DNA of 64,000 nucleotides. It comes from a bacterium (GTDB taxonomy: Bacteria; Patescibacteriota; Microgenomatia; Levybacterales; UBA12049). The notes beneath the pieces are model-generated. The model was not told where the DNA came from and did not search any database. It was given only the letters and a program-made list of their open reading frames with translations. Positions within the stretch are counted from its first letter, which is position 1; every line of letters begins with the position of its first letter. A program made the translations under genes and the position numbers. Where the stretch lies: assembly GCA_021780675.1 (NCBI GenBank), contig JAJXYH010000004.1, positions 5,668 through 69,667 of the forward strand. Reading direction: 5' to 3'. Below are positions 32,371 to 50,742 of the stretch, in pieces.

Positions 32371-33510
32371 TTACTGTATCGGCCTAACCGGTACAAGCCA
32401 GTACCAACCAGTACCACCTAGGTATGCAGAATACCATTTAAATTCATTAGACAAAGACGTACAGCCATTTGGATCTCTCACGTGTATATCCACACCTCCT
32501 GAGGAATTAATTCTAACATCATCAACAACAAAAGAATGACCTCCATTAATTGGGGGCCAATAAGCACCAGCAAACAATAGATATCCATTGCTCAAATAAC
32601 TTTTAGCTTGTGTGTAATTTATTGATTGAGAACCAGACTTTAGATTTACGTGTGGATCTTCATATCCAAGAGACTTAAACCAGTTATCTTTTTGGGTAGA
32701 AAATGTCCAAAAACTTGTTCCCGTACGACCGCTTCCCGGTAGGTTGGACCACCCGTTTGTGTCAAAATCAGCCGCAATTTCTGCAGGTCCATGCGTGTCG
32801 CAATAGCTACTCATAATCATTGCCAAGCTGGTTGGGCCACAACCGGTACTAGCAATTGTTCCCGAATCAAAACGCCTACTTGAATAACTTTGCCCCCACT
32901 GACAATAAAATTTATTTGTTGGAGAAGCTTTGCAACCCGAACCTGGTGGTGTGGATGAGGACCCCGAACCGGGAGGCAGGCAACAGATTAAACCCTGCCC
33001 ACAAACTAACCCTCCGGTATCTTGTACCATTGGGGGAGTCAAGGTTGTGCAATCAGTGCCGGCAGGCTTACATAAAGAACCTGTAACGGATGAGCATTGT
33101 GTTGATTGGTTATTAGCTGTTGTTGTTGGTTGACCAGTAATAACAGTTATGATTGCAGTAAAAATGATTACCACCAGTATAACTACTACCACAATTAAAA
33201 CAGGAATAATCCAGGCAGGTGCAGAAGAGACAATTACCGTAGCAATTCGTCTTTTAACCTCTTTTTTTACCCTATCTTCCAGTTTGTTTTTTGCAGCACC
33301 ACCGATATTTCTTAACGTTCCTCCTCCTGGAATGTTGCCACCACTCTGTCTTCCAGACGCTTCGTCGTTGGTGTTACCGCTCCCTATATTTCCCGTAAGA
33401 TTTCTGGACAACCTATTAATTTTAACACCCTGTTTTAAAGTGTTTGGTTTATTTACGCCCTGTTTTAAGGTGTTAGGTGTAGGTTTTCCCGAACTACTAC
33501 TGTCTGCCAT
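32371..33510 (-). CDS. membrane-anchored C39-like/CHAP-like cysteine peptidase domain protein (candidate cell-wall hydrolase of the T4SS-like locus)
   Basis: CQWGQSY...STGCGPTSLAMIMSSY (Cys nucleophile in a C39/CHAP-like context) and a downstream GGHSFVVDDV His. N-terminal tandem repeat KPNTLKQGV x2, one TM, Cys-rich linker. Confidence 0.5.
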   Translation of the reverse strand: MADSSSSGKPTPNTLKQGVNKPNTLKQGVKINRLSRNLTGNIGSGNTNDEASGRQSGGNIPGGGTLRNIGGAAKNKLEDRVKKEVKRRIATVIVSSAPAWIIPVLIVVVVILVVIIFTAIITVITGQPTTTANNQSTQCSSVTGSLCKPAGTDCTTLTPPMVQDTGGLVCGQGLICCLPPGSGSSSTPPGSGCKASPTNKFYCQWGQSYSSRRFDSGTIASTGCGPTSLAMIMSSYCDTHGPAEIAADFDTNGWSNLPGSGRTGTSFWTFSTQKDNWFKSLGYEDPHVNLKSGSQSINYTQAKSYLSNGYLLFAGAYWPPINGGHSFVVDDVRINSSGGVDIHVRDPNGCTSLSNEFKWYSAYLGGTGWYWLVPVRPIQ

Positions 33511-33529
33511 AAATTAATAATACCAGATT

Positions 33530-35392
33530 TTAATCATTTACAATGTTTGGATGTGGTGAAGACGCAGGCATTGGGTCCGGAAGCTCAATGGGTTCTTCTT
33601 GCGGATTTTCTTCAACAACATCCTCAACCTCTTGCGGCTTCTTATCCTTATCTTGCGGATTAGTAGAAATCATATCATGTTCAAAAGGCGCTGCAACTAC
33701 TTGCATTGCAACGTGATTTTGCCCTGCGAAAAACAAACCCTCACCAATATTTGCAGACAGGAGTAGTTGCTTTTCTCCAACAGTTAAATAAAAAATATCA
33801 GCAATCATATCAACCTCTGCAGGACTTTGTTTTAAAAGCATTTGGATAGAAGAGTTGGAAAGCACAGCTTTTCCATAGTCGGTTGATAAAAAATCTTCGG
33901 CATCTTGAGTTGCTGTAGTTAATGCAAGATAGTATTTTCTTGCTCTTTTAGCAACACCATACACAAATGAGGCGGAATCTTCATGCTTCATCATATACCA
34001 GGCTTCATCAAGAATTAATAAGCGTTTTTTTAGGGTTTTTCTTACCTTTGTCCAAACAAAATCTAAAATTATATGCATTGCAATTGGTCTTAATTCATCC
34101 TCCAAAGCCTTAATATTAAAAACCGTAAAAGGATTGGTAATATCAAAGTTCGACTGTTGGTTAAAAAGGCCGCTTAGGCTTCCTTTAATAAATCTTTCCA
34201 GGCGTAAAGCAAGGTCTTTAGCCGCGTTATCTTCCATTCCCAAAAGAACTTTATAAAGATCTTCCATTAGTGGTGGGGTTTTCTTTTGTGTTTCAGGGTC
34301 GGTGGTAATTCCTTTTAATCTGTATGTTTCAACGAGTGCCCTATCTAAAATTGCATCATGTTGAGCATCAAGCTCACCAAGGACTATTTTTAAAAGTCCG
34401 TGTAGGGATAAGATTTTTAAACCAAGTTCATTTTCATCTTTTTCATAAAGTCCGGAAAGATCAAATGGGTTGATTTTTATATTTGAGCTTGATGCAAAAG
34501 TTACCTCCTCGCCACCCACAAGCTCTGATAATTTAGAATATTCACCTTCAGGATCTATGATTATGATTTCTGCACCAAACATAAAATTTCTTAATGCCTC
34601 AAGCTTAATTAAATATGATTTTCCCGCCCCCGATTTTCCAAACACAACTTCATTCGCGTTTTCCAAACTGAATCTATCAAAAATGATTAATGAACCGTTT
34701 TGTTGGTTTATCCCATACATGATTCCTTTATCTTGGGCCAAAATGGCTGAGGTAAAAGGAAAGGTTGAAGCAAGCGATGTGGTATCCATATTCCTGGTTA
34801 TAAAAAGCTTATCTTGACCAAGTGGGATGGTAGACTTAAACCCTTCTTCCATTTGAAGGGTTGCGGGTTTTGGAACCATAAGGATTGAGCTTAGTGTGGT
34901 TGTAAGTTTTTTAGAAGCTTCGTTTAAGTCCTCCAATTTTTCGGAAAAAAGCGTAATATAAAGACTAAATTGGAAAAATCTTTCCATGCCTTTAGCAAGT
35001 TCTTCTTGAACCGCAAGAGCATCTTCTAAAGAGGCGGAAACCTTTGGGTCTACCTGAAGACCTTCTTCTTCCTGAGAATAGATAGTCGCCTCCATTTCGG
35101 TAATTTTTCTTCTAAGATCTGATAAAACATCTGCAGAAGAAGTTGGATATAAGAACATAGAGACATTCATTGAATGATCAAAATTAATTAATGGCTCGAG
35201 CCAGTTTGCGGAAACAAACCTCGGATACCCAACAACAAACAAAGTTTTGTAATATTTTTCTCCTACGCGAATATGGTTAAAGTCTACTTCAACAGAAGGA
35301 GGCGCGATAACATCAGGAATAGAAACCAAATCTCGCTTGATATCTGGTTGTGCATCGTCGTTTTTTACAGTATTTTTTTTGCCGAAAGTCAT
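33530..35392 (-). CDS. virB4: VirB4/TrbE/CagE-family type IV secretion ATPase (ATPase part)
   Basis: IRVGEKYYKTLFVVGYPRFVSANWLEPL motif, Walker A FGKSGAGKSY, Walker B LLILDEAWYMM (DEAW). Confidence 0.75.
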   Translation of the reverse strand: MTFGKKNTVKNDDAQPDIKRDLVSIPDVIAPPSVEVDFNHIRVGEKYYKTLFVVGYPRFVSANWLEPLINFDHSMNVSMFLYPTSSADVLSDLRRKITEMEATIYSQEEEGLQVDPKVSASLEDALAVQEELAKGMERFFQFSLYITLFSEKLEDLNEASKKLTTTLSSILMVPKPATLQMEEGFKSTIPLGQDKLFITRNMDTTSLASTFPFTSAILAQDKGIMYGINQQNGSLIIFDRFSLENANEVVFGKSGAGKSYLIKLEALRNFMFGAEIIIIDPEGEYSKLSELVGGEEVTFASSSNIKINPFDLSGLYEKDENELGLKILSLHGLLKIVLGELDAQHDAILDRALVETYRLKGITTDPETQKKTPPLMEDLYKVLLGMEDNAAKDLALRLERFIKGSLSGLFNQQSNFDITNPFTVFNIKALEDELRPIAMHIILDFVWTKVRKTLKKRLLILDEAWYMMKHEDSASFVYGVAKRARKYYLALTTATQDAEDFLSTDYGKAVLSNSSIQMLLKQSPAEVDMIADIFYLTVGEKQLLLSANIGEGLFFAGQNHVAMQVVAAPFEHDMISTNPQDKDKKPQEVEDVVEENPQEEPIELPDPMPASSPHPNIVND

Positions 35393-36051
35393 TTTTCCAA
35401 TACCTCCTGCTCTGATGGCTTAACTAAATTTTCCGCCTGCTCAAAGTTAATATTGGCATCGTTAAATATTTCATAAAAAAGTTTTACTAATTTTTCCTTT
35501 CCCAGTATTTCAGCTCTTAAATTAACTCTTCCTATTTGGTTTAATAATCCTTCTGCTTTTGAGTGTAGGGCAGATTTTGCGCCAACCGCAAATAAATTTT
35601 GCTCAGAATTGACTCCCATTTGTTGAGAAACTCCACCGATACCGCTTTCCAAAGAAGAATAATAAATCACAATATAGAATTTTTTGTCAAGAATGGTATT
35701 AACCTTCACAAGTTCGGAGATAAAATCTTTATACATTGAGATATATTTTGAGAATAATGGATTTTTTGATTGTTGTGCCTCGTCTGCTAAGAGCTTTATA
35801 TACGATGAAATATTTACCCTTTTACTTCTTATGATTATTTGTACAGGGTAGGATATTGAATTCAAAAGCGCAGCATAAGCATAAATTTTAGCATCCTGTT
35901 CGTCAGGTGAAAGAAGTGCAAAGTTCGTGGCACTTATTTCAAGGACAATACATGCATAACCACCATTTAAAATTACCACATCATCAACAATATCCTGGAT
36001 TTCGGTAAATTTTTGGGTTGAGTTAGATAATTTTTGGGCAGAGCCTTTCAT
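35389..36051 (-). CDS. VirB4 N-terminal-domain-like protein (probable split N-terminal part of VirB4)
   Basis: The pattern VDDVVILNGGYACIVLEISATNFALLSPDEQDAKIYAYAALLNSISYPVQIIIRSKRV follows the CagE_TrbE_VirB N-domain logic. ATGA overlap with the downstream ATPase ORF. Combined length ~840 aa, close to canonical VirB4. Confidence 0.4.
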   Translation of the reverse strand: MKGSAQKLSNSTQKFTEIQDIVDDVVILNGGYACIVLEISATNFALLSPDEQDAKIYAYAALLNSISYPVQIIIRSKRVNISSYIKLLADEAQQSKNPLFSKYISMYKDFISELVKVNTILDKKFYIVIYYSSLESGIGGVSQQMGVNSEQNLFAVGAKSALHSKAEGLLNQIGRVNLRAEILGKEKLVKLFYEIFNDANINFEQAENLVKPSEQEVLEK

Positions 36052-37382
36052 TAATTAAAAAGAGACCTCCTTAATTCTTCTCTTGTATCTATTGATATAA
36101 TTTCAAGCGGCATAATTATTTCACCGGACGCTTTAAATCCTACCGTTTCAAACTTATTTTGTCCTCTTGGATCTTCAAATTCTATACTATAGTCACCGTC
36201 TGTAAGAGCAGTTGCAGAAGCAAATTGTCCCAAAGCGTTTGTTTTAAATGCCCTGACGGCATTTCCCTGTAAATCTTTTACCTCAACCAATATATTTGGT
36301 AGGGGGTTTCCTCTTGGATCTTTAACGATACCAGAAATAACATTTGGAAATTCAGGGGCAGCAACTAAACCAACACTTTTGGTTAAGTTTTGCGGAATAC
36401 TTCTCACTAATTTTGCTTCCTGTGGTTGTAGTTGTGCAATTTGTGGTATAGCAATATTTTGATTTTGCGAAGTCATTTGCTTTTGAATTTGTACTAATTT
36501 ATCTTCAAGTTGTTGTTTTTGAAGCTGCATATCGCTTAAGCTTTGCTGAAGTTCTAAAACTTTTTGATGGGCTTCTAAAAATTGTTTTTCATCTTGCTGC
36601 GAAACTGTTTGTAATGGCGCAGGTTGCGGCGGAGCGGGTAGTGGAGTAGTGGCTGTATCCGGTTTAGGCTTTAACTGCTGTGAGACGTCTTGAATTATTT
36701 CCGGAGTTTTTATTGTGGTGTCTATGGTATTTATAGCTGCTGCTGGTTTAACAGGGCTTGTAATATTGGGTAAAGTTGCCAGCTGTTCCACCGCTTCAGG
36801 TTGCGGAGCTTGATTTGAGTATGCGTGCTGCGGAATATAGCTCGGTAGGTTAACAGGCGTTCCACTTTTTTGATAATGATCAACATTTTGTAAAAACACC
36901 ATTTCTTTTTGGTCAAGCTTGCTGGCTGATTTGGGAAGTGTTTTCAAAAAACTTTGAAGCTGCTGATCGGACATATCAGAAATAGTTTGACGTTTTTTTG
37001 CAAAGTCACTAATTTTTTTTACCTCTTGTTCTTGTAACCCCTCCGAACCCTGTTGATAAATATATTGAGTAGGCTTAGTTAGGGCTTTTATTAAATGCGT
37101 TATCATTACATCAAGCGGCCTTCCGTCTATTGGTAAAAATGCCAAAGAGGCTCCCATAGCGGCAGAAAGAACAGCAAGGGGTATTTTAAGTAGAAAAAAA
37201 AGCGGAGAAATGTAAAAAACCCAAGCAACTATAAATCCCGCAGTAAGGTAGCCGAATTGTTTTATGGTCATACTCCCAATTAGTTTAAACTGGAATCCCG
37301 TAATGTCTTGTGGTATCGGATGGTTTTCGATGTCCATATAAAAAAGCATATAACGTGAAAAATCTGGTTTCAAGAGAATCAA
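36051..37382 (-). CDS. PrgI/VirB3-like membrane protein fused to Q/P-rich coiled region and a C-terminal carboxypeptidase-regulatory-like (transthyretin-fold) domain
   Basis: N-terminal IPQDITGFQFKLIGSMTIKQFGYLTAGFIVAWVF resembles the PrgI family. C-terminal GIVKDPRGNPLPNILVEVKDLQGNAVRAFKTNALGQFASATALTDGDYSIEFEDPRG resembles the CarboxypepD_reg fold. ATGA/ATG overlap with the next gene. Confidence 0.45.
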   Translation of the reverse strand: MILLKPDFSRYMLFYMDIENHPIPQDITGFQFKLIGSMTIKQFGYLTAGFIVAWVFYISPLFFLLKIPLAVLSAAMGASLAFLPIDGRPLDVMITHLIKALTKPTQYIYQQGSEGLQEQEVKKISDFAKKRQTISDMSDQQLQSFLKTLPKSASKLDQKEMVFLQNVDHYQKSGTPVNLPSYIPQHAYSNQAPQPEAVEQLATLPNITSPVKPAAAINTIDTTIKTPEIIQDVSQQLKPKPDTATTPLPAPPQPAPLQTVSQQDEKQFLEAHQKVLELQQSLSDMQLQKQQLEDKLVQIQKQMTSQNQNIAIPQIAQLQPQEAKLVRSIPQNLTKSVGLVAAPEFPNVISGIVKDPRGNPLPNILVEVKDLQGNAVRAFKTNALGQFASATALTDGDYSIEFEDPRGQNKFETVGFKASGEIIMPLEIISIDTREELRRSLFN

Positions 37383-37431: not shown

Positions 37432-37752
37432 TTATCCGCAAGTTCTGAATGAGAATTCAAATGAAGTGGTGTCAATACACCCAACCCCTGTTACACTTCC
37501 TATAAATTTAATGATGAAAAATGACAGCATTACTAAAACTAACCCTAACACGGCAAAGGCAATTGTTTTTCTGGCTTGGTCAAGTTTCTTGGGATCACCC
37601 CCCGAAACTAAAAACCGTATTCCACCTATGATAATAACAATTACGGCAATAGATCCGGACAGTAAAATTCCCCAGTAAATAAAATTTAATATTATTATTG
37701 GTATACAACTAATTGTTGCAACCCCATTAGAACTACACGTTCTCCAGTCCAT
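37432..37752 (-). CDS. VirB2/TrbC-type T4SS pilin-like protein (short paralog)
   Basis: Shared C-terminal module: TM...SGGDPKKLDQARKTIAFAVLGLVLVML. Confidence 0.55.
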   Translation of the reverse strand: MDWRTCSSNGVATISCIPIIILNFIYWGILLSGSIAVIVIIIGGIRFLVSGGDPKKLDQARKTIAFAVLGLVLVMLSFFIIKFIGSVTGVGCIDTTSFEFSFRTCG

Positions 37753-37803
37753 GATTTAAGCTTAAAAGAAATAAAAACAAATTGCAAGTAGGTTTAGTTA
37801 TGT

Positions 37804-38202
37804 TTAGAAAGCTGTGGAGCCATTAATGTTTGGAATGACGACATTAGACAATGTATTAAGTCCAAAGAACTGGAGTATTAAGTTCAAAACCAAGTATGAA
37901 AGGAATATGATTACCAAACCAACGATTGCTGCAACAATATGTTCTCTAGCCGAAGCAACAGCTTGTTTGTCTCCGCCGGATGTTAACCATTTAAATCCTC
38001 CCCAAACAAGATAGAGAAGTGCAACTAAAATTGCTACTGCAAAAATTAAAGCAATCACAGTACCAACGATTGAACCGATATTATTGGAGCTTAAAGCACA
38101 AAGATGATTATATGGTCCTGCACATGCATCAACAGCAAAAGCAGGAACTGTAACTGTAAGAAATACTGCTGCGGGGGTAACCAGTGCGATTGCTTTTTTC
38201 AT
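37804..38202 (-). CDS. VirB2/TrbC-type T4SS pilin-like protein
   Basis: Signal peptide (AFA-VD). C-terminal LYLVWGGFKWLTSGGDKQAVASAREHIVAAIVGLVIIFLSY. Confidence 0.6.
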   Translation of the reverse strand: MKKAIALVTPAAVFLTVTVPAFAVDACAGPYNHLCALSSNNIGSIVGTVIALIFAVAILVALLYLVWGGFKWLTSGGDKQAVASAREHIVAAIVGLVIIFLSYLVLNLILQFFGLNTLSNVVIPNINGSTAF

Positions 38203-38271
38203 GTATATATTTATACTAATAAAGTTTTGATTTGTTTGTCAAGTACCAATTTAGCTTCAATTTAACATTAA

Positions 38272-39003
38272 TTAAAGAGTCGGTACGTTAAAAAACTGTA
38301 AGATAAGATTTACAATCAAAGCAGCAAGAAATACTATAATCAAACCAACGATTGCAAAAATAACTTTTTGTCTGGCAGAGGTTAAAGTCTGTTTGTTTCC
38401 ACCGGACATTAACCAGTCAAATCCTCCCCAGACCAGGTAAAAAAGCGCAAGAAGAATTGCAATTACAAACAAAATGTTTATTCCGAAGGCAAGAGCAGTA
38501 TTGTATTTTACAATAGGTACTCCGCCCGGCTGTCGCGCTTTAAAGAAATTTGCCAAAGTATCTAAAGCAACTGCGGGATTAACTTCGCCCCAATTCCCCC
38601 AACTGTTACCGGTTTGAGTACCATTATTATTTGAAATACATCCTGCAGAATGATCACATTTGTCTCCGGTTGAGCAGGTTAATGTTATTATATTGCAGGT
38701 TGTTCCTTGTGGGGCACCACTGCTTGGAAAGCAATTCTGAGTGGTTCCTTCCCAGTTGCAGTTTTGTGGACAGGTTTTACAATTCCCGCCAGAAGCAACA
38801 CAACAAACTCCCAATCCACCCTGACCACCTAATGAACAGACCCTAGTACTATCAACATATTGATTCGCTTGGCCACAAGTTGTTACACCGTTTGCTACGC
38901 AATCCAGGCATCCTGGAGGAAGGAGCGCTCCTTGGGCAACAGGGGTTTTAATCACGAAAATAAATAATAATAAAAAACTAAAAAAATAAAATAATTTTTT
39001 CAT
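38272..39003 (-). CDS. VirB2/TrbC-type pilin-like protein with Cys-rich N-terminal ectodomain
   Basis: Signal peptide, ~25 Cys in the ectodomain. C-terminal FYLVWGGFDWLMSGGNKQTLTSARQKVIFAIVGLIIVFLAAL. Confidence 0.6.
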   Translation of the reverse strand: MKKLFYFFSFLLLFIFVIKTPVAQGALLPPGCLDCVANGVTTCGQANQYVDSTRVCSLGGQGGLGVCCVASGGNCKTCPQNCNWEGTTQNCFPSSGAPQGTTCNIITLTCSTGDKCDHSAGCISNNNGTQTGNSWGNWGEVNPAVALDTLANFFKARQPGGVPIVKYNTALAFGINILFVIAILLALFYLVWGGFDWLMSGGNKQTLTSARQKVIFAIVGLIIVFLAALIVNLILQFFNVPTL

Positions 39004-39005
39004 AA

Positions 39006-40454
39006 TTATTGATTAAAAATATTTAATATATCAACTCCAATGAAATTCATAAGGGTAAATGTAAAAATTATTAGAACCAGTCCTACAATTGCTGCAGTTA
39101 ATTGCTCCTGCGCATCTTTAGTTTTTTCGGGGTTTCCTTGTGAAACTATTAATTTATAAGCGGAGTAAATTATTAAAAGTGTTGCGATTCCGCCTGCAAT
39201 AGATAAAATAATTGAAAAGATTTTTGAAACTAACCCCTGAGAATCAGTGCTAAAATTACCAAATGCTGTTGGGCAAGTTGTTATATATTTCCCGTTCACA
39301 AGGGTTGTCGTGCAGGGAAGTTGACCGTTGGTAAATCCAGAACCAAGCCCCCCTCCACAACCAACCCCTTCAACGCACTGACTGGAGCTACAGCTTTGGT
39401 AAGTTGGAGAAGTAGTCAAAGCGGGTATATCTGGATGACTTTGTCTAGTACATTTTTGATTTTCCTGATTGGCAAGACTATTAAAAGTATAACCGCTAGG
39501 GCAGACAGCACAGTCTGTTCCTCCTCCTCTGCAGTGTGTTGCAGTACAGTCTGAAGCGCTGGTATAAGCCCCTGTCCCCGTACCTGTATGCACTACGCAT
39601 CCATATTGTGTGCAGTCATACCCGCCGCGGTTTGCATCAGCAGACCAAGTGCAACAGGTTTGAGTTGCGGCGCTTTGGCTTTTGCAGTAGGCGTTTCCAC
39701 TTGAGGTTATAATTCCCCCTGCTTGATGGCAGACGTTATTATTAGCTACACACTCTCCATCTCCTCCAGCGGGTGCAAAAGACTGGCAGGTTGGCGGTTC
39801 ACACTTGTTGGTTTTTAAATTACAGGTGTAACCTGTGTTTGCCCCACTACAGCTTCCATCAGCATTAGCGCTACAGGAGACTGTTAAATTGCAGTTCTTA
39901 TTGTAAACTAATCCACAATTTTTTGTGCCGCAAATTGCTGCTTGAGTGCAGCTTGGTGAAACGCATTTGCCGCTTCCCTGGTCCCATGAATAACCAGAAC
40001 TGCAAAGGCATTCTAAAATCGGTACCGCACCCGATTGGTTTGAATCTATACAGTTTAAACCAAGATTTGGTTTACATTGATACGTTCCATCGCAAGATTG
40101 ACCATAAGTTTTGTAATATGTGCAAACTCCAGTAGTTTTATTGGTATAAGCGAGAATAGAATTGCACGTACACATGCCATTTGGAGTGTAATATGTGGTG
40201 CAAGTTTGTTTACCTGTTGTGGGGTCGGTGACACATGTTTCATGTGAAGTATCTGTAGGGTTACTACAATACGTTGGGTAGCAACAAATACCAGGTGTTG
40301 CACCGCACGGCGCATTGGTGTTGGGCGTGCAATCTACCGCGGCAGCTGCCCAGGCATTATTTTTTAAAGGGGCTAAAGTAAAAAATAATATAAATAATAA
40401 AATTGCAGGAAACAAAAACTTAAGCAAACGCTTCATAAAATTATAGTAGAACAA
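39006..40454 (-). CDS. VirB2/TrbC-type pilin-like protein with large (~400 aa) Cys-rich ectodomain
   Basis: Signal peptide, about 60 Cys. C-terminal AYKLIVSQGNPEKTKDAQEQLTAAIVGLVLIIFTF pilin module. Confidence 0.55.
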   Translation of the reverse strand: MFYYNFMKRLLKFLFPAILLFILFFTLAPLKNNAWAAAAVDCTPNTNAPCGATPGICCYPTYCSNPTDTSHETCVTDPTTGKQTCTTYYTPNGMCTCNSILAYTNKTTGVCTYYKTYGQSCDGTYQCKPNLGLNCIDSNQSGAVPILECLCSSGYSWDQGSGKCVSPSCTQAAICGTKNCGLVYNKNCNLTVSCSANADGSCSGANTGYTCNLKTNKCEPPTCQSFAPAGGDGECVANNNVCHQAGGIITSSGNAYCKSQSAATQTCCTWSADANRGGYDCTQYGCVVHTGTGTGAYTSASDCTATHCRGGGTDCAVCPSGYTFNSLANQENQKCTRQSHPDIPALTTSPTYQSCSSSQCVEGVGCGGGLGSGFTNGQLPCTTTLVNGKYITTCPTAFGNFSTDSQGLVSKIFSIILSIAGGIATLLIIYSAYKLIVSQGNPEKTKDAQEQLTAAIVGLVLIIFTFTLMNFIGVDILNIFNQ

Positions 40455-40479
40455 AACTTAAATAAAATGCAAGTATAGT

Positions 40480-41913
40480 TTAGTCTACGAATTTAAAACC
40501 ACGCCCTTTAACAGTTAAAATATGAATTGGGCTGTTAGGGTTATTTTCAATTTTTTTTCTCAACCTAAAAATTAATTGATCTAAAGCCTGGTCGGTTACA
40601 CCCAACGTGGTTTTTTGGTTTCCCCAAACAGCGTTAATGATGTCTTCTTTTTCTAAAATCTTTTCTTTCTGAGAGATTAAAAATTTTAATAACTTAAATT
40701 CGGAAGAAGTTAAATTATCGGAAATTACACCTTCGCCCAGTTTAATTTCATTAGTGTTTTCATCAACAGTTAATTTAAGACCGGTTTTTACAGTTTGGGA
40801 TTTAATAATTGCGTTTTTAATAAATTCTCCAAATAGCGGAATTGTTACTTTTCCACCGGAAACAAGGAAGATTTTTTCTAAAAAAGGTTGTTGTTCTTTG
40901 TTGTCGATAAAATATTGCTGCTCTGAAGGGTTTAAACTGTTCCAGATAGAGAAAAGCGAGCTTCTTACCGGGCGCTGTGAAAGCAAATAAGTTATTAATT
41001 GGTTGTTTTCGGAAATTAATTTTTTTTCGGCGGTAAGTGCCGATTCAAGCGAAAGAATGGTTAGTCTTCCGTGTCCTGCAGTTAATTTTGATATTTCATC
41101 AAGCATTTTTTTATCGACTTTTTTATTGATTATTTTTTCAAGATATGAAATTCTAAAATCAAGACCCGGCTTGTCTAAGATGGGCAAATAGATAATTTTT
41201 TCCGCCAAATATTCAAAAAAATCGGCAAAAAGCATTGGTTCAGTTACATCTTCGAGGGGTTTATTTAAAGAAAATACAGCAGAAAAATAATATTTTGCCC
41301 TGTTTCTTAAAACTCTAAGGTTGGCAAAAAATTCGTTTGTGAGCATCGGAATATATTCTTCGAATCTATCAAAAAGGAGAATCAGTTTTAAATTTCTTTC
41401 AACACATAAATAGTCAATTGTTTTTTTAAGGCCTGCAAAAAGCACCATTTCATCGTTGAACCCGATACTCTCTTTAAAATAGTTATTAATTACTTCGTAC
41501 TCTTTTTTTAAACCTCTTTCGCGCAAGGAATCTAAAATTCCCAAGAAGATAAATTTATTTGCATCAAATAACGGTCTTTTTCTAATTTCGGAAAAGTTTA
41601 AAAGGACAAAATGAAAATTTTTCTGATTTTCCCCAAGATGAATAAGTCTTACTTTTTTATTGTAAGAAAGGAGCCCCAAAAGATTAGATCTGCCAACACC
41701 CGGAATAGATACGACTTGACAGGAATTGCCCTCTTTTATAAATTTGAGAATTTTTTCAATTTCTTCAAATCTTGAATTTTGCGGGTATAAACTTTCGAAA
41801 TGTTCTGTTTCCATAAAGATATTGTAATTTTTTTGTAATACAAATATCAAGCTAAAAAATTCCCGCGGATTTAAAATTTTGGCATATGAAAGAACGCGGA
41901 GATGAATTGACAA
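40480..41913 (-). CDS. transcriptional regulator: AAA-like NTPase domain (GVGRSN Walker A variant) + C-terminal OmpR/PhoB-type winged helix; immediately upstream of pilin operon
   Basis: VVSIPGVGRSNLLGLL, LILLFDRFEE. C-terminal INAVWGNQKTTLGVTDQALDQLIFRLRKKI...ILTVKGRGFKF. The true start is probably the internal METEHF. Confidence 0.5.
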   Translation of the reverse strand: MSIHLRVLSYAKILNPREFFSLIFVLQKNYNIFMETEHFESLYPQNSRFEEIEKILKFIKEGNSCQVVSIPGVGRSNLLGLLSYNKKVRLIHLGENQKNFHFVLLNFSEIRKRPLFDANKFIFLGILDSLRERGLKKEYEVINNYFKESIGFNDEMVLFAGLKKTIDYLCVERNLKLILLFDRFEEYIPMLTNEFFANLRVLRNRAKYYFSAVFSLNKPLEDVTEPMLFADFFEYLAEKIIYLPILDKPGLDFRISYLEKIINKKVDKKMLDEISKLTAGHGRLTILSLESALTAEKKLISENNQLITYLLSQRPVRSSLFSIWNSLNPSEQQYFIDNKEQQPFLEKIFLVSGGKVTIPLFGEFIKNAIIKSQTVKTGLKLTVDENTNEIKLGEGVISDNLTSSEFKLLKFLISQKEKILEKEDIINAVWGNQKTTLGVTDQALDQLIFRLRKKIENNPNSPIHILTVKGRGFKFVD

Positions 41914-44282
41914 ACCAGGCTAATTCCTTTAGTCTTGAAGGAAGAGGAGGTATTATGCCGGACGGAGGAACACCAGAACAACCAGAGCCAAATTTAAGTC
42001 CAGAAATAAGCGGAGATGCGTTAGCGTCGTCAAATAATTCTGTTGCAAGACTTGAAGAGTTAGCGGGAGAAGGCTCCGGAGAGAGAATTAGAGAAGAGCA
42101 AAAAAAATCCCAAAGAAAATTTTTGGAAAGTCAAGAATCCGATAGGCTGCCAAGATCATTTGAAGACTTGGTCGGGAAAATAATGAATTCGGCAGAAGCG
42201 CAGTGGAAAGAAGATGGAGATCAGGCATTAATAGATAAAGAGGGAAATATTAATAAAGAAAATTTTTTAGCCTGGGTAAGAGATAGGATGATGTGGCTTC
42301 ATGATTTTAATTCGGTTACTGAGACCAGCTTTTTTTCCGACGTTAACATAACTGTTGGTTATGCCAAAATTACCCTTTACGATATGATTTTTACCGGTAA
42401 ATACTTTTTACACGAAGTAAAGGGTAATGATGGAAATATTTCTTACCATAAAAGTGATGATCTTGAAAAACTTAAAGATCAGCTTATAAACGAAGCATTT
42501 CTTTTTGGAAATTCCAGAAATAATGATGTTAAGTATAAGTCGATGATGCCTAATGAAGCAGAACTTCCAAAACTCTTGCAACAAATATATTTTGCTAACC
42601 CGTTTTTAAGAGGCAGCAACTTTCAGGATATTTTAACACTTAATTCTGTTGATAAAAATAGAATTCAACAGCTAAGAGATGAATCCGGCAATGTTGCAGA
42701 GTTTGATAAAAACAGGATTAAAAATCTGGTTGAAAAAGATTCAAGTGTTGGAGAAGGGGTAAGAAGAGCACTCCTTGCCTATTACCACATACGTGATATT
42801 GAGATGCTTAAAAAAATATTTGAGGTGGAGGAAGGTAAAAAAATTCAGAATTTAGCTCTTTTTATGGAAGGATACGATGATTATGATTCAAAAACTTTAA
42901 GACTTGCAGTTGATGAAAATGGCGCAAATAAACCTAAGAAAAAGGGTGAAGCAAATCAGGATTTAAAAGACACAGAAGCAGCGGAAAATATCCCCGATGG
43001 GGAAAAAACTTCAGTTGAATACGATAGCGATGGGAAAGTTAAGTTAGATACTAAAGCCCAAATCAAACGATTTACGGATTATATGAATCCATTTAATTTG
43101 GCCAGAAAAGAGGAAAGACAAGAAGGTGAAATTCGGGAAAGAATTAGGCAATCAATAATGCAGGTAACAGGACTTACTTATTCGGAAGCAAAATATGCAG
43201 AGTCATGGGCGTATTCAATGGCCAGATGGACGGGAATTGGCGCAAGAAACGATACGGGAGCCGCTGCATTTGATGCATGGAGTAAACCGCAAAATTTACT
43301 TCCATACAGACTTAAGCAGCTGGAAGATAAAAGACTGGGTGTATTTGGGAATAAGTTTAATCTGGCAGGAATTAAAAGAGCAGGACTTACGATGTTTGAG
43401 GGGATTTCCGATATCCATGGCAGAAATATTATAGAGGCAATTCAGGGAGGACAAGGAATGGAATTTAACGCAGATAATCCGTTTAAAACCACAGATGCAA
43501 AAACAAATCTTGCTTTTGGAAAAGATACAGGAAGCTTTTTTGTTAGTAATCATGTGATGAACTCATTTAAGATCTACGATTTTATAATTAACCATACAGA
43601 CTTTAATATCGAAGATATGATTACATATGATACTTTTGGAAGGCCGATAATCGACCATGAAAAAGCGGATAAAATAATTGATGGTATTCAAAAGGCTATC
43701 AGGTACGCGTATTGCACATGGGATGGGATAAACTACAACAAATCTATAAGAGTTATGGAAAAAGATGTGGATGGAAACGATGAAATAAAAGAAATGCCAC
43801 TTATTGCAGCGATGTTTGGACCCGATATTTTAAAAATGATCCAAAACGATATTAGTGAGAGGGAAGCAAGGCTTAAGCCAGGAGAGTCTTTAACACGGGG
43901 CGTAAGAACTAATATTTGGACAATTGCTCCTGATCACGATAATTTCCAGATGGATATGGAAAAAGTACAATCGAAAGCTGTTAGGGAAGTGCTTTGGAAA
44001 AGTATATTACAGTACTTAATCGCAGAAGAAGTACATTCACATAGAAGCAGGGCCAGTGAAGAAACAAGGTATGGCTATGATATGGTAGAAAAGGTGTACG
44101 ACTTCTTAAGAAGAAAAGGCATTGCCGATAAAGCGGAAATTGATGAGATGCGAAAACTTAGTAATTCTACTCTTAGGGTATTAAATATAGAAGATTTTGT
44201 AATGGAGGCAGGTAAAGGAACACTTAAAGGTTTTTGGAGTATGATGAGAATAATAATGAGCGGTCTTATGACAGGGAAGTAA
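41886..44282 (+). CDS. large soluble hypothetical protein (798 aa), divergent from the regulator
   Basis: No TM and no recognisable catalytic motifs. Acidic N-terminus. The start may be the downstream MPDGGTPEQ. Confidence 0.4.
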   Translation: MKERGDELTNQANSFSLEGRGGIMPDGGTPEQPEPNLSPEISGDALASSNNSVARLEELAGEGSGERIREEQKKSQRKFLESQESDRLPRSFEDLVGKIMNSAEAQWKEDGDQALIDKEGNINKENFLAWVRDRMMWLHDFNSVTETSFFSDVNITVGYAKITLYDMIFTGKYFLHEVKGNDGNISYHKSDDLEKLKDQLINEAFLFGNSRNNDVKYKSMMPNEAELPKLLQQIYFANPFLRGSNFQDILTLNSVDKNRIQQLRDESGNVAEFDKNRIKNLVEKDSSVGEGVRRALLAYYHIRDIEMLKKIFEVEEGKKIQNLALFMEGYDDYDSKTLRLAVDENGANKPKKKGEANQDLKDTEAAENIPDGEKTSVEYDSDGKVKLDTKAQIKRFTDYMNPFNLARKEERQEGEIRERIRQSIMQVTGLTYSEAKYAESWAYSMARWTGIGARNDTGAAAFDAWSKPQNLLPYRLKQLEDKRLGVFGNKFNLAGIKRAGLTMFEGISDIHGRNIIEAIQGGQGMEFNADNPFKTTDAKTNLAFGKDTGSFFVSNHVMNSFKIYDFIINHTDFNIEDMITYDTFGRPIIDHEKADKIIDGIQKAIRYAYCTWDGINYNKSIRVMEKDVDGNDEIKEMPLIAAMFGPDILKMIQNDISEREARLKPGESLTRGVRTNIWTIAPDHDNFQMDMEKVQSKAVREVLWKSILQYLIAEEVHSHRSRASEETRYGYDMVEKVYDFLRRKGIADKAEIDEMRKLSNSTLRVLNIEDFVMEAGKGTLKGFWSMMRIIMSGLMTGK

Positions 44283-44286: not shown

Positions 44287-46071
44287 TTAAGATCTAATTA
44301 TCGGTTTTCCATTTCGATCAACTAGCCCCGTCCCGCCCGTGTCTGTTCCCCCTGTAATATTAGATTCATTAGGTTTTTTTCCAGTAATTTCTTCATGCAC
44401 CGCTTTTAATTGGTCATGTCTGCCGGAAGCTGTTGCGACTTCTTGCGAGGACGGAGTTCTGGCTACAAAACCGGTTGCTCTTTGCAGTGCATTCCTTTGG
44501 ACTGTTTTAGATGACTCATTATAGTTTCCGGCTGTATATCTTTGTAGCCTGCTTCCAACAAAACCTCTCATTTGATTTGTTCTTGGATCTCTATAGTACA
44601 TTCTGGATGCAACACCCCCGGCAAATCCTGCAACAGCTGCTTGTCCTGTGCCAACGCCGCCCATACTAAGCCCACTACCTCCTGCGCCAAAGGTTTTTCT
44701 AACCTTTTCGACAATGCTGGGTGATGCGAGAATAAAACCAACTGCAATTAAAGCTCCATACATTGTCTGATTCCCTCCACCTGTTACATTTCCAATTATG
44801 GGGGGGTTAAACATTGTACCGGCATTTGACTGCGACAGCGCGTCCATGATAGTTCTTGCGACAATAAATACAAATAAGGTTGCAGGAAATGGCGCAAGAT
44901 TCCCGGCCATATTTTTTATCCAGGAGGTAAAACCTAAGCTCCCACTAGCCCCGGGTATAAGACCACCCAGAATCCATAAAGGAGCCAAGATTGTTCCAAG
45001 CAAAACATTGATAAAACATTTAAGAAGCGCAAACCAAAGCCTAAACAGGGCAACAATAACGGCAATTACAAAAATAAGAAATACAATAATCCCGGCAATA
45101 AAACCAATAAGACTTGCAATTAAATGCCAGAAAGCATCCATAATCGTATTAACCCAACAGCCTAAGAAAAAGCATCCCTGACTAGAATTATTATCGGTCA
45201 TTGCTCCAGAAACTTGGTTGGATGCCAGAACATTATGTACTAGGCTTCCAACACTCGAAGCAGCTGAGGCAGAAAGACCTAAAATTCCACCATCTTTTCC
45301 GCCAAACATATCATTAGTAAATCCAATACTTGACTCCGTTGCCCACTTAGATATATCTACGTGTTGTGCATTAGGAGTTAGCGTATCAATTACCAAAAAA
45401 TTAGTAACCCACATGGCATCTATTAAAAGTCCGGCAATTGCATAGGAAAAAGTGATCATTACAAGCCCGATAATAAGTTTTGGAATTTGGTTTTGGATTG
45501 TCATAACAGTTCGGGGGTCAATTCTTAAGCGTAGCATTATTGCAATCCCTACAATTATAAAAATCACCATCATTAGAAGGTATGCAAGATTTCTAAAAAT
45601 TGTAAACAAACCAAGAACAGGTGATAGTCCTACAAAACCAATACTATTGTCCGCTGCATTTGCAGTTTTTACAATACCGAAATTATTTGCAGCATAGGCA
45701 ATATAATCGGAAGTATGTACGGGTATTAAATAAGTTGCGGTAAGTAAATTTCCCATCATGCCTATTGCTCCTCCACCACTTTCTTTAACAAAGCCGATTC
45801 TTCCGGTATTTTTATCTATTCCGAGACATGATTGTTTTGAATTTATAGGATCAATGCCTGTAAGTTGGCAAATCATAGAAGACATGGTTTCAATCATTAC
45901 ATTTTGAGTCCAGGTATGTAAATTGACCGGAACATTAGGATCCATATTGGATGAAAGCGTTTGCTTAAGTTGAGTGGAAGAGCTCTGAGCAAACGACTTG
46001 TGGGGGCTGATAATAAAAACCAATAAAATAAAGGCAAAAAACAAACCTAAGACCTTGGCAGCAAACCTCAT
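44287..46071 (-). CDS. VirB6/TrbL-like polytopic membrane protein
   Basis: Signal peptide (SFA-QS), at least 7 hydrophobic helices, Gly-rich C-terminal tail. The assignment rests on architecture and context only. Confidence 0.4.
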   Translation of the reverse strand: MRFAAKVLGLFFAFILLVFIISPHKSFAQSSSTQLKQTLSSNMDPNVPVNLHTWTQNVMIETMSSMICQLTGIDPINSKQSCLGIDKNTGRIGFVKESGGGAIGMMGNLLTATYLIPVHTSDYIAYAANNFGIVKTANAADNSIGFVGLSPVLGLFTIFRNLAYLLMMVIFIIVGIAIMLRLRIDPRTVMTIQNQIPKLIIGLVMITFSYAIAGLLIDAMWVTNFLVIDTLTPNAQHVDISKWATESSIGFTNDMFGGKDGGILGLSASAASSVGSLVHNVLASNQVSGAMTDNNSSQGCFFLGCWVNTIMDAFWHLIASLIGFIAGIIVFLIFVIAVIVALFRLWFALLKCFINVLLGTILAPLWILGGLIPGASGSLGFTSWIKNMAGNLAPFPATLFVFIVARTIMDALSQSNAGTMFNPPIIGNVTGGGNQTMYGALIAVGFILASPSIVEKVRKTFGAGGSGLSMGGVGTGQAAVAGFAGGVASRMYYRDPRTNQMRGFVGSRLQRYTAGNYNESSKTVQRNALQRATGFVARTPSSQEVATASGRHDQLKAVHEEITGKKPNESNITGGTDTGGTGLVDRNGKPIIRS

Positions 46072-46305
46072 ATTAATTACAGTTTGTATGATTTTTATTT
46101 GCTTGTCAAGTTTAAGATGAAGAGTAGTATAAATTATTTTATATGCATGCGCGGGATAATTCCTTTCCCAAATAGTATAAGGCAGGATTTAAATACTCTG
46201 TCAAATAGGTTTAAAAAATTATTATATTGCAGAATTTCTGCGGATATTCTGCATAATTTAAGCAACTTATTAAATTTAACAAATAAAAGATAAGGCTTAA
46301 ATTAG

Positions 46306-46392
46306 CGGAGAGGGCGAGATTCGAACTCGCGAAGAGCTTGCACTCTTAGCGGTTTTCAAGACCGCCGCACTAGTCCACTATGCGACCTCTCC
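46306..46392 (-). tRNA. tRNA-Ser (anticodon TGA), class II long variable arm
   Basis: Manual fold: acceptor GGAGAGG/CCTCTCC, anticodon stem GCGGT/ACCGC, loop CTTGAAA, T-arm GCGAG-TTCGAAT-CTCGC. Confidence 0.8.
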
Positions 46393-46525
46393 AAGTGTAT
46401 CGAGGAGATTAGTACCTGCATGAAATGCATGGTACGACCTCTCCGTAATGCTAATTATAATTTAACTTGATGGTTTATGCCAGTATTTACTTGACTATTA
46501 GTTTCTTATCTACTACATTAAATTT

Positions 46526-47056
46526 ATGCCAAGTAAAAAGGATTCAGCCCCAAAAGAAGAAATTAATGAAGCTCAAGATACTACGCTTCTAGAATGGGAG
46601 TCACCTGGAAGACCATTTAAAAAAAGAACAAAACAATATTATTTAACAGCACTTTTAATTACTCTTCTGGTTGAAACCATTCTATTTTTATTCTCAGAAT
46701 ATTTACTAATGTTTGTGGCGGCCTCGCTTTTGTTTGTAACCTTTGCTCTTGCGAGCGTTCCTCCCAAAACTTTCAAATACCGCATATCTACTCAAGGCAT
46801 TCAAATTGAAGACAGGTTTTTTATTTGGCAGGAGTTTTATGATTTCTATTTTTTAAAACGCGAAGACACGGAAACATTGCATATAAGAACCGAAGCCTTT
46901 TTCCCCGGTGAGTTAGTTTTAACTTTCAATGTGGAAAATAAAGAAAAAATTAAAAAAGCATTGATTGACTATATTCCCTTTAGGGAGTACGTTAAATTAA
47001 CTTTTATGGAAAGGTCAGCCGATTGGCTTGCCAGAAATTTTCCCCTGGAAAGTTAA
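46526..47056 (+). CDS. membrane protein, hypothetical
   Basis: 176 aa, two hydrophobic helices after a basic N-terminus. Confidence 0.35.
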   Translation: MPSKKDSAPKEEINEAQDTTLLEWESPGRPFKKRTKQYYLTALLITLLVETILFLFSEYLLMFVAASLLFVTFALASVPPKTFKYRISTQGIQIEDRFFIWQEFYDFYFLKREDTETLHIRTEAFFPGELVLTFNVENKEKIKKALIDYIPFREYVKLTFMERSADWLARNFPLES

Positions 47057-47101
47057 CAATTTGCCCCAAACTATTATATAAAGTAAAATACGAGTATCTT
47101 T

Positions 47102-47174
47102 GTGCCCGTAGTTCAACGGATAGAACACCTGGTTGCGGTCCAGGCGGTTGGAGGTTCGATTCCTCTCGGGCACG
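47102..47174 (+). tRNA. tRNA-Arg (anticodon read as GCG)
   Basis: Acceptor GTGCCCG/CGGGCAC, D-arm GTTC-AACGGATA-GAAC, anticodon stem CCTGG/CCAGG with loop TTGCGGT, T-arm GGAGG-TTCGATT-CCTCT. The isotype is inferred from the anticodon only. Confidence 0.65.
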
Positions 47175-47179
47175 CAAAA

Positions 47180-48901
47180 TCAATTACAATTCCCACCGGA
47201 AACTTTAATATTTTTCAACTGATTATAGAAATTCTGGTAAATATATCCATAATTTTTTATCGTGCAATCGTTCGGGTCATTTTTGTGTAATATAAAGTAG
47301 ACTTGTTTTTCTAAATTTACCCAATTTGCCCGGTCAAAAAAATATAAATAATTAATTAGCGAGTTTGTATCTAAATTTGTACCGATTTTAAACGTGTTTT
47401 TGTCAATTAAATATTTACTAATTAACTTTTTATTCTCGTTATTATTTTTAATTAAAATTAATGAAAAGTCATCCAAATAAATAGGCTTGAAGTCTGAACT
47501 ATTTAAGTAAAATTGAATATTCTTTGAAGATTCATAAGTATAGAACACAAAAATAATATTAACTTTGTATTTTATAAAAATCGGTTTTAATAAGTTGGGG
47601 TTTTGAGTAGCCGGGTAATAAACATTAAGACCGAATTCTTTTGGGTAAGCTTCCGGACGGGCGTCAATAAATACTTTTTCTTTGGGGAACAAAGAGTACG
47701 CCAAATATTGTCCGCTGTCAAAATTATTATAAATTGGTCCATGCAGTTTATTATCCAAATAAAAAGTAATGGAGTTTTTGCCGGGATTATTTGCGCCAAG
47801 GCCTAACATTTGTTGGGAAACGTGTTTAAAAAGAAAAAGAACCAAGCACATACAGATAAAAAATAAGATAAGATTTTCAAAATTAACAATCCTTTTATTG
47901 GATAATGTTTTTTTTGCAAAAATTAACAGATTATTTATAACCAAGCTTAAAATTTTTACCGATGGAATAAAAATTGCATATGCAAAAAAGGCAATGTTCC
48001 GGTTTGCGTAAACCACGCCGAATGTAAAAGTAAAAATCAATAAAAAATCGGATAAAAATAATTTTTTCCGGTAGCGTAAGCCCAACAAAAACATAAAAAT
48101 TCCATAACAAATTGCAGTTAAAAACGGTTGGTAATACATACCGTTTCTAATCATGTAAATTATATTTTGGTTTTCGGCAATTGACACGGAATATCCAAGG
48201 TTAAAACTTAACGGGAATAGTGCGCCATTAATAAAATTTGGGTTTAAAAAAGTAGCTATTATTGATAAGAGAAAAACTTTTGATAAAGTTTTAAATTTTT
48301 GTGAACGGATGGTTTTGCCTGAAAAAAATTCATCAATAGCAAAAATAAAAATTAAAACAAGTCCTAGGACAAAAAAGATATGCAGGTTTACCCATAAGGC
48401 TTCCATTGGGATTAATAGATATATTAGTAAGGTCTTTTTCTCTTTAAATTTATAAAGAATAAGCAAAAACAAAGTGAGTAAAAAATAGCTGAAGATTTCC
48501 GGACGTATTTCGTTTCTCAAGAAGACTAAATTTAAAATTATAAGTGAAGTTAATAATATAGAAATTGGATGGAATCTTTTAATGGAATAAATAATTAAGC
48601 TTAAAAAAGTAAGCAGTGATATTATTTCAATAAAAATAACTAAGCCATTAAACCCCGTAAAGTTTACAATTAAATATAATATGATTTCCGAAAGCCAATG
48701 GGAATTTACATAATGATAATTGGTGTTTGTATAAGAGATTAAATTGGTTTTTATAATCTCGTGTGTTTGTACCATGTACTTACCAAACAAAAGATGTCTT
48801 CCCAGGTCAAGATTAAGCGATGCGGGATGGAAGAAAGCAATAAAAATAAACAGGAAACAAAAAAAATAGGCACAAACTAATAAGATTTTCTTTAATCCCA
48901 T
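47180..48901 (-). CDS. large polytopic membrane protein, possibly GT-C family glycosyltransferase
   Basis: 573 aa with >12 hydrophobic helices. No verifiable motif. Confidence 0.35.
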   Translation of the reverse strand: MGLKKILLVCAYFFCFLFIFIAFFHPASLNLDLGRHLLFGKYMVQTHEIIKTNLISYTNTNYHYVNSHWLSEIILYLIVNFTGFNGLVIFIEIISLLTFLSLIIYSIKRFHPISILLTSLIILNLVFLRNEIRPEIFSYFLLTLFLLILYKFKEKKTLLIYLLIPMEALWVNLHIFFVLGLVLIFIFAIDEFFSGKTIRSQKFKTLSKVFLLSIIATFLNPNFINGALFPLSFNLGYSVSIAENQNIIYMIRNGMYYQPFLTAICYGIFMFLLGLRYRKKLFLSDFLLIFTFTFGVVYANRNIAFFAYAIFIPSVKILSLVINNLLIFAKKTLSNKRIVNFENLILFFICMCLVLFLFKHVSQQMLGLGANNPGKNSITFYLDNKLHGPIYNNFDSGQYLAYSLFPKEKVFIDARPEAYPKEFGLNVYYPATQNPNLLKPIFIKYKVNIIFVFYTYESSKNIQFYLNSSDFKPIYLDDFSLILIKNNNENKKLISKYLIDKNTFKIGTNLDTNSLINYLYFFDRANWVNLEKQVYFILHKNDPNDCTIKNYGYIYQNFYNQLKNIKVSGGNCN

Positions 48902-49000
48902 AAGTTGATAATAGCAAATTTTATTTTAACCGTTTGTCTGTTAAAATATAAAGACCCGGAGGGGTCTTCCTACAAGAGGACTATTCTCCTTGGTAAACCC

Positions 49001-49087
49001 GGAGGGGTCGCATAGTGGACTAGTGCGGCGGTTTCGAAAACCGCTATAGCCGAAAGGTTATCGTGAGTTCGAATCTCACCCTCTCCG
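49001..49087 (+). tRNA. tRNA-Ser (anticodon CGA)
   Basis: Same scaffold as the other Ser tRNAs (GGAGGGGTCGCATAGTGGACTAGTGCGGCGGT). Anticodon loop TTCGAAA. Confidence 0.8.
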
Positions 49088-49991: not shown

Positions 49992-49992
49992 T

Positions 49993-50739: not shown

Positions 50740-50742
50740 TTT

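Follow-up and report, generated by a model that had tools for sequence, protein, structure and literature searches.

We examined an array of four tandem genes for pilin-like proteins of a type IV secretion system (T4SS) that opens with two genes whose products carry large, cysteine-rich N-terminal domains. The array occupies positions 37432-40454 of a 64,000-nucleotide stretch of contig JAJXYH010000004.1 from the genome of an ultra-small bacterium of the Patescibacteria (the whole stretch is referred to as the window), where four head-to-tail open reading frames (ORFs), all on the minus strand, encode proteins of 482, 243, 132 and 106 aa; the gaps between them, from the first gene to the last, are 2, 69 and 51 bp. 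A first-pass annotation, made from the letters of the DNA, had described the products as VirB2-like T4SS pilins. Our results agree with this description, and we propose, at a probability of roughly 0.5, that the first protein acts in a T4SS pilus as an adhesin subunit of low copy number, at the tip or as a minor component, and that the four genes are the pilin set of this T4SS. The genes are called class 1 to class 4 according to their position.

The class-1 gene (39006-40454) gives 482 aa when read from a TTG; its likely start is the ATG at 40436 (M7, six codons further on, as in the public gene call), which yields 476 aa. It is composed of a leader (~40347-40436), a Cys/Thr/Gly-rich ectodomain (~39267-40346), a two-helix module of the PF18895 family (39009-39266) and the stop codon (39006-39008). 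The class-2 gene (38272-39003; 243 aa), enlarged in this lineage, begins 2 bp past the class-1 stop and consists of a leader (~38929-39003), an ectodomain with 14 Cys (~38521-38928) and the module (38275-38520). Class 3 (37804-38202; 132 aa) is a canonical small pilin, in which a signal peptide (residues 1-23) is followed by a short N-terminal loop with a conserved Cys pair (C27/C35, C27 being at least 90% conserved) and a helical hairpin; a search with its profile gave 787 matches, the best 120 of which span 71-163 aa, and it is the best candidate for a shaft subunit. Class 4 (37432-37752; 106 aa) is a small pilin without a signal peptide, in which the hairpin lies between a 16-residue N-tail and a C-tail with two Cys each (Cys at 6, 16, 92 and 105). 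Typical n-h-c leaders were recognised, by eye and with a crude script, in the 132-, 243- and 482-aa proteins (AFA|V, VAQG|A and AWA|A, respectively), in line with the signal peptides that the annotation had assigned to the two larger ones; all signal-peptide and topology calls given here are heuristic.

To what family does the part shared by the four proteins belong? Their C-terminal 85-95 residues align readily and contain a hydrophobic helix, a turn, A(R/Q) and a second helix with the motif ..A(I/V)(V/L)GL; the residues A, S.G, A, A..GL and I are invariant across the four. The common C-terminal module of the first-pass annotation thus stands, but its S-G-G-(D/N) turn is present in three proteins only (SGGD, SGGD and SGGN), the 482-aa protein having SQGN. 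All four proteins scored above the gathering cut-off of PF18895 T4SS_pilin (26.6 bits), with 39.4 (residues 404-472), 28.2, 38.5 and 33.0 bits from class 1 to class 4. PF04956 (TrbC/VirB2), the other profile that had been suggested as a check, was not reached at its threshold of 27.9 bits: the 132-aa protein alone matched it, with 18.2 bits (E=0.003). Among 118 aligned homologues, every one matched PF18895 and 36 also matched PF04956 (E<=0.01, best 7.6e-6), which was by far the second most frequent family. The architecture is likewise of the VirB2 type, with two hydrophobic helices joined by a short turn (hydropathy and AlphaFold2) and heuristic leaders in three of the four proteins. AlphaFold2 modelled the 132-aa pilin (118-sequence alignment) as a helical hairpin with helices at 39-73 and 79-112 and a predicted local distance difference test score (pLDDT) above 90, and the 476-aa class-1 protein (8-sequence alignment) with helices at 399-431 and 436-470 (476-aa numbering). 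Homologues of PrgI/VirB3 and VirB4 are encoded immediately downstream on the same strand. The four proteins are therefore members of PF18895 and VirB2-like in architecture and context, but they are not members of PF04956 by its threshold. A type IV pilin or type II secretion system (T2SS) pseudopilin identity was considered and rejected, as no class III leader (G|F/M..xE) is present in the four sequences and the hydrophobic two-helix module is C-terminal.

VirB2-type pilins polymerise with phospholipid into an extracellular filament, and some of them are cyclised head to tail. With the Gram-negative VirB2, TrbC and TraA pilins the window proteins share the Sec-type leader, the two helices and turn with both ends outside, the location upstream of virB3 and virB4 and the weak but recurrent sequence similarity given above; they differ in scoring below the PF04956 threshold and in belonging to a monoderm host. 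In addition, classical pilins have ~70-120 residues in the mature form and no extra domain, whereas class 1 of the window adds ~360 residues with 42 Cys.

We then asked whether a large pilin in the first position is a regular feature of such arrays. A scan with the class-1 module provided 11 loci from species-representative genomes (with an alignment of four sequences) and 48 metagenome loci (JGI/ENA), and all ORFs of the fetched loci were searched with a hidden Markov model (HMM) built from pilin modules. The labels of the metagenome-assembled genomes (MAGs) are unreliable for these loci, several Levybacteria-like contigs being labelled 'uncultured Gammaproteobacteria'. A large pilin (246-503 aa) was the first gene of the array in all ten array-bearing genome loci; in the eleventh, L014, the module HMM found no pilin ORF. 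Nearly all metagenome loci also had a large first pilin, the exceptions being L061 and L062 with small pilins only (101-130 aa). Over the 58 related loci as a whole, a module of the SQGNPE...LTAAI(V/I)GL type formed, with few exceptions, the C-terminus of a large protein that opens an array of 3-6 pilins, and two or three large pilin genes stood in tandem in L033 and L054. First-position pilins with a complete N-terminus had 196-644 aa, and large pilins with a complete N-terminus had 243-644 aa (n=45, a set that takes in the 482- and 243-aa proteins of the window, the 432-aa second-position pilin of L004 and the tandem extra copies).

Module identity to same-position pilins elsewhere was 53-67% for the first module of the window, 54-71% for the third and 47-75% for the fourth, while within the window it was 21-32% between class 1, classes 2/3 and class 4, and 54% between positions 2 and 3. 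Other traits were conserved with position as well: class 3 has ~132-140 aa, a leader and one Cys pair across loci, and class 4 has ~100-115 aa, no leader and Cys in both tails. These comparisons indicate that the four genes are old, position-specific, subfunctionalised classes in a fixed order and not recent duplicates. The four tandem ORFs of the first-pass annotation are thus there, but the simple paralogy that it implied has to be replaced by this ancient division into classes.

Class 2 and class 4 vary in their own ways. A word-indexed search with the 243-aa class-2 protein gave solely the protein itself and a 149-aa pilin that matched its module. Its orthologue in the second position of L004, the nearest relative (10316-11614), has 432 aa and 14 Cys, and a module that is 67% identical; this protein carries an extra N-terminal beta-rich region, and its membrane-proximal Cys-rich part is homologous to the 243-aa protein of the window. 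Such an architecture suggests that class 2, too, grows through the addition of domains within this clade. Last-position pilins with a C-terminal extension of at least ~85 residues past the module were seen in four loci (L006:11275-11871, L007:8477-9082, L010:4987-5526 and L052:3596-4372), with 12-18 Cys per protein. Cys-rich additions thus occur at either end of the hairpin, which fits with both ends being extracellular. The four-Cys pattern of class 4 recurs in many orthologues (L004, L008, L017, L023 and others). TrbC, VirB2 and TrhA pilins undergo head-to-tail cyclisation, and, as both tails of class 4 should be extracellular, it is pure speculation that disulfides between its N-tail and C-tail could mimic this cyclisation.

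Next, we examined the cysteines. The four proteins contain 42, 14, 2 and 4 Cys, respectively; the counts of ~60 and ~25 that the first-pass annotation had given for the 482- and 243-aa proteins were too high. In the two large proteins, all 42 and all 14 Cys are placed after the signal peptide and before the first helix of the module (residues 42-394 and 32-122). Cys makes up 11.7% and 10.4% of the two ectodomains, compared to 0.50% over the remaining 61 ORFs in the window. The number of Cys in the ectodomain was even in 42 of the 45 large pilins (p ~4e-10), as predicted if all of them pair in disulfides outside the cell. We infer that the Cys-rich ectodomains are extracellular and disulfide-locked, with 21 and 7 possible pairs. 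According to the first-pass annotation, its reading would suffer if the module failed to align to known pilins and if the Cys-rich parts were predicted in the cytoplasm; the module does align to a pilin family, and the predicted topology puts these parts outside because of the signal peptides and the even Cys counts. Genomes from the candidate phyla radiation (CPR) show enrichment in MdbA-like oxidoreductases and VKOR (bioRxiv 10.1101/335083); no gene for either was seen in the window. A further Cys-rich exported protein, a secreted protein of 388 aa with 12 Cys and a sub-threshold FGE-sulfatase-like match, is encoded at 57959-59125 (plus strand).

In database searches, the class-1 ectodomain of the window stood largely by itself. 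A phmmer search with its 363 residues against 1.84 billion representatives returned the protein itself and three marginal matches, and word-indexed searches of both large proteins returned relatives at the level of the module only; as far as sequence searches can tell, it is an orphan with no homologue among the 1.84 billion representatives. Pfam found no domain in either window ectodomain at E<=10, and in ten large pilins from other loci (nine first-position pilins and the 432-aa second-position pilin of L004) it found PF18895 and weak TrbC matches only at E<=0.01. There were no internal repeats in the ectodomain of the 482-aa protein, and the similarity between the 243- and 482-aa ectodomains was no greater than in shuffled controls. 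Membership in the VirB5/TraC family of tip adhesins was rejected, as neither Pfam nor NCBIfam gave a match in the ectodomains even at E<=10.

How does such an orphan domain evolve? We compared class-1 pilins whose modules were 85-100% identical, which gave 15 distinct pairs after two duplicate pairs had been set aside. In 13 of the 15 pairs the ectodomains were just ~19-25% identical, which is the background for unrelated sequences of such composition; the other two pairs had 71% (L010/L007) and 34% (L032/L021). At the DNA level (blastn), homology spanned the region from the upstream regulator gene to about the start of the pilin gene, was lost for ~1 kb and came back at the module, with sharp breakpoints in, e.g., L006/L007, L022/L024 and L019/L021. 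A further pair, L056/L057, had 99.5% nucleotide identity from the module onward and nothing in common before it. Between the window and L004, identity was 79% for VirB4, 64% for the class-1 module together with its linker and, when an alignment was forced, ~32% for the ectodomain. The type of ectodomain also varied by lineage, some being Cys-rich (up to 50 Cys) and others beta-rich with few Cys. These comparisons show a cassette-like replacement of the class-1 ectodomain from one relative to the next, beyond mere divergence. Wholesale replacement of the ectodomain between conserved flanks (the signal-peptide end of the gene and the module) is the pattern expected of a host-specificity determinant, for which the class-1 ectodomain is a good candidate. 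Flagellin and phage receptor-binding proteins, in which recombination exchanges a hypervariable exposed part beside a conserved assembly part, likewise show conserved flanks, a central or distal region without similarity between close relatives and sharp breakpoints; their folds and machines are unrelated to those of class 1, and the likeness is one of evolutionary pattern only.

This turnover strengthens the suggestion of the first-pass annotation that the large ectodomains form adhesin-like or host-contact tips, which we consider plausible. Classical VirB2 pilins are extracted from the membrane into the filament by a VirB4-driven machine, and the subunits of the VirB2 pilus are added at its base, so that the subunits incorporated first end up distal. 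In the arrangement that we propose, the two-helix module would insert in the membrane with both ends outside, and the N-terminal ectodomains of classes 1 and 2 would leave the cell by way of their Sec leaders and be fixed by disulfide bonds. A filament or stalk of the VirB2 type, with VirB4 driving it, would probably be assembled from the small classes 3 and 4. Few copies of class 1 would enter it, either sparsely or, as the simplest case, at the tip, and these would expose to the surface of the host cell a binding domain that varies and resists proteases. VirB5/TraC adhesins and the minor pilins with large domains of T2SS and type IV pili (GspK, PilY1-associated sets) are low-copy binding subunits at filament tips. 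The proposed logic, a low-copy tip binder encoded beside the major subunit, is alike, while the sequences are not related and the putative adhesin of the window is itself a VirB2-type subunit, not a separate fold. More tentatively, and with the odds somewhat against it, class-1 pilins may be a modular host-recognition subunit of the Patescibacteria T4SS, in which a conserved VirB2-type polymerisation module displays a disulfide-knotted or beta-rich cassette that recombination swaps between lineages and that sets the choice of host.

Several observations weigh against the proposal that class 1 is a low-copy adhesin of a pilus. The profile of the module, when compared with the sequences of the PDB, retrieved no solved pilin but just chance matches to membrane helices, and the turn in the class-1 module is not clearly basic. 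No binding domain is recognised in the ectodomain of the window or in the ten related large pilins. In the AlphaFold2 model of the 476-aa protein (8-sequence alignment) the ectodomain has a pLDDT below 50, and its fold and disulfide pairing are unreadable. The 'tip or minor' placement is argued by analogy and from an approximate calculation of sterics. Further public copies of this locus, 99.96-100% identical, have no single-nucleotide polymorphism in the two large genes, so that the evidence for ectodomain turnover comes from comparisons between species. Finally, no T4SS pilus has been seen in Patescibacteria, and monoderm T4SSs normally have no pili (PMC12102498, PMC12857230).

This last point leads to the alternative that survives best, which is a possible but rather doubtful one: the module may be a membrane anchor or a hairpin that docks to the T4SS, with no pilus at all, and the large proteins may be surface adhesins or wall-spanning spacers at or near the secretion channel. 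NCBIfam contains precedents in proteins of Mycoplasma integrative and conjugative elements (ICEs), MMCAP2_0566 and Mbov_0396 (306-322 aa), which hold a similar module within larger proteins. Mycoplasma ICE families (the pilin-like NF045849 Mbov_0395 and the larger membrane proteins NF045848/NF045889), which represent monoderm conjugation systems with VirB2-like hairpins, gave the best NCBIfam matches of the 132- and 482-aa proteins (E=9e-6 and 6e-9, respectively); these matches are below the curated cut-offs (25-35 vs 40 bits), and the larger Mycoplasma proteins have the hairpin at the N-terminus and not at the C-terminus. An anchor would hardly explain four conserved classes in a fixed order, two of them minimal subunits (~105-135 aa) with no other domain, in a family linked by sequence to TrbC/VirB2 pilins. 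Moreover, Southlakia epibionticum, the only species that is genetically tractable, requires its pilin array along with the T4SS for epibiotic growth (Wang et al. 2023, PMC10633639).

Could class 1 instead be the shaft subunit itself, so that every copy in the filament bears a variable domain? Flagellin, with its conserved polymerising ends and hypervariable outer domain, provides the model for such a fully decorated filament, because class 1 also combines a conserved polymerisation module with a hypervariable exposed domain; the two or three tandem large pilins of L033 and L054 would fit with it too. We consider this unlikely. If a 359-residue domain were placed on every subunit of a T/F-like helix, it would require a void-free shell ~42-48 Å thick (estimated with assumed pilus dimensions and geometry), which makes full decoration unlikely, though possible, and the small classes 3 and 4 are universally kept beside class 1.

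Still less probable is that the hairpin targets the protein to the T4SS as cargo and that the ectodomain is cleaved off, e.g. by the C39-like peptidase encoded in the operon, and released as an effector or a toxin-like knotted protein. Sequences that are orphan, hypervariable and rich in disulfides are characteristic of secreted effectors and toxins. With a Sec signal peptide already present, though, the T4SS is not needed for crossing the membrane; we noticed no conserved motif for cleavage where ectodomain and module join, beyond the conserved Cys...C.TA.G linker, and the C39-like protein may simply be a VirB1-like wall hydrolase.

For the VirB2 arrays of Bartonella and Anaplasma, variation through interchangeable pilins has been proposed. 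Antigenic variation has also been suggested for the pilin arrays of Patescibacteria (PMC12102498). That the four genes are alternative major pilins from tandem amplification, serving antigenic or host-range variation, is very improbable in spite of the high divergence within arrays (~25% average identity reported in PMC12102498, 21-54% in the window), as each position has its own orthologue group, kept in many genomes, with the same order and class-specific features (leader or none, Cys pattern and size), and the variation sits in the class-1 ectodomain and not in which paralog is present. The position-specific classes thus argue against the published suggestion.

What was known about such arrays? 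Tandem arrays of VirB2-like pilin genes have already been described (PMC10633639, PMC12102498, PMC12857230): 441 arrays of 2-11 genes have been reported in Patescibacteria, chiefly from Microgenomatia and Saccharimonadia (Quinonero-Coronel et al. 2025, PMC12102498), and a review from 2025 considers the Patescibacteria T4SS the only monoderm T4SS that bears pilins (PMC12857230). The window fits this description fully. As in the array of Southlakia ML1 (SEML1_0014-0019) and the arrays in PMC12102498, tandem PF18895/PF04956 genes have PrgI/VirB3, TrsD and VirB4 as neighbours, often close to dnaA, and the paralogs are divergent; no relaxase or coupling protein is seen nearby in the window. The Southlakia pilins differ in being small, with PF18895 at 56-116, 115-180 and 38-99 and genes of ~380-420 bp. 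The view of the first-pass annotation that the large fusions are barely characterised seems fair, since the one array studied by experiment (Southlakia ML1) has small pilins only and pilins of 200-650 aa with large ectodomains, the fixed order of classes and the ectodomain cassettes are not mentioned in the open-access text that we searched. The conserved large first pilin with its cassette-like, disulfide-rich ectodomain appears to be an undescribed class.

A large part of bacterial diversity belongs to the Patescibacteria, which live attached to other microbes, and the exchangeable ectodomain offers a concrete candidate for host recognition among them. If this is true, the class-1 cassette would set which host cell the epibiont attaches to or taps. 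Class 1 would then be the first case, for any T4SS, of an adhesin fused to a pilin, and would serve as a genomic marker of host range for uncultured CPR bacteria, and the repertoire of VirB2-type pilins would widen from bare subunits of ~7-12 kDa to carriers of domains of ~15-60 kDa.

The rest of the operon agrees with a T4SS. Its order (regulator, four pilins, PrgI/VirB3, TrsD, VirB4) is kept in Levybacteria loci. The putative regulator (40480-41913, minus strand; 477 aa) has a C-terminal winged helix of the OmpR/PhoB type (PF00486 Trans_reg_C, E=2e-19) and a weakly AAA-like N-terminal region, and its gene stops 25 bp upstream of the ORF for the first pilin; orthologues (50-71% identity) lie directly upstream of the pilin array in L004, L006, L007, L009 and L010. 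A second Trans_reg_C paralog is found at 23191-24492 (minus strand), and both are large proteins with an OmpR-type C-terminal domain and without a receiver domain. Downstream of the array, also on the minus strand, are a PrgI/VirB3-like membrane protein with a C-terminal Ig-like CarboxypepD_reg domain (36051-37382; PF12666 E=1.4e-8, PF13620 E=2.7e-8), a TrsD-like protein that corresponds to the N-terminal part of VirB4 (35389-36051; NCBIfam TrsD, N-terminal part of VirB4_plasma; PF26593 TraC-like in the public gene call) and a VirB4-like T4SS ATPase (33530-35392; NF045971 conju_CD1110 with 387 bits against a cut-off of 325, PF19044 E=8e-28). VirB4 is thus split into a TrsD-like gene and an ATPase gene with overlapping stop and start codons, which matches the reported norm in Patescibacteria.

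At the distal end of the operon, a Peptidase_C39_2 (papain-like) protein of 379 aa with 11 Cys is encoded (32371-33510, minus strand; PF13529 with 26.7 bits, cut-off 24). It has a repetitive N-terminus (KPNTLKQGV x2) and a weak orthologue in L009, and could be a VirB1-like wall hydrolase or a pilin-processing peptidase. Past this gene comes a small ORF, followed by dnaN and dnaA on the opposite strand and by rnpA and yidC. VirB4 lies 2 kb downstream of the array and dnaN/dnaA 1.6-4 kb further. With four genes, the array agrees with the published definition of Patescibacteria pilin arrays (2-11 tandem genes near virB4, TrsD, PrgI and dnaA/dnaN). In the public records the window matches contig JAKBEW010000009.1 (GCA_021833605.1). 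The nearest relatives among species-representative genomes, on which the Levybacteria-like assignment is based, are MAGs of Levybacteria/Levyibacteriota (VirB4 79% identical), and the locus is a chromosomal, origin-proximal T4SS of the monoderm Patescibacteria (Levybacteria-like) type.

On the other side of the regulator gene, two large ORFs without a Pfam match (41886-44282, plus strand, 798 aa; 44287-46071, minus strand, 594 aa, with a signal peptide) keep synteny with the T4SS locus among Levybacteria relatives, at 36-53% identity, and might encode additional components of the T4SS. A scan for promoters and terminators gave counts no higher than in shuffles. The octamer TACTTGCA is present at 40468-40475 and 37783-37790 (minus strand), ~30-35 nt upstream of the first and last pilin start codons, and the related ACTTGACA and ACTTTCA stand upstream of the 132-aa pilin and of prgI. 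With 8 copies in the window against 6 expected, the exact octamer shows no enrichment, so that TACTTGCA may be simply the local -35 consensus. Within 12 kb, near the T4SS, there are four tRNA-Ser genes (tga, cga, gga and gct) and one tRNA-Arg gene (46305-51262 and 57854-57943), and a tmRNA is located at 62619-63032.

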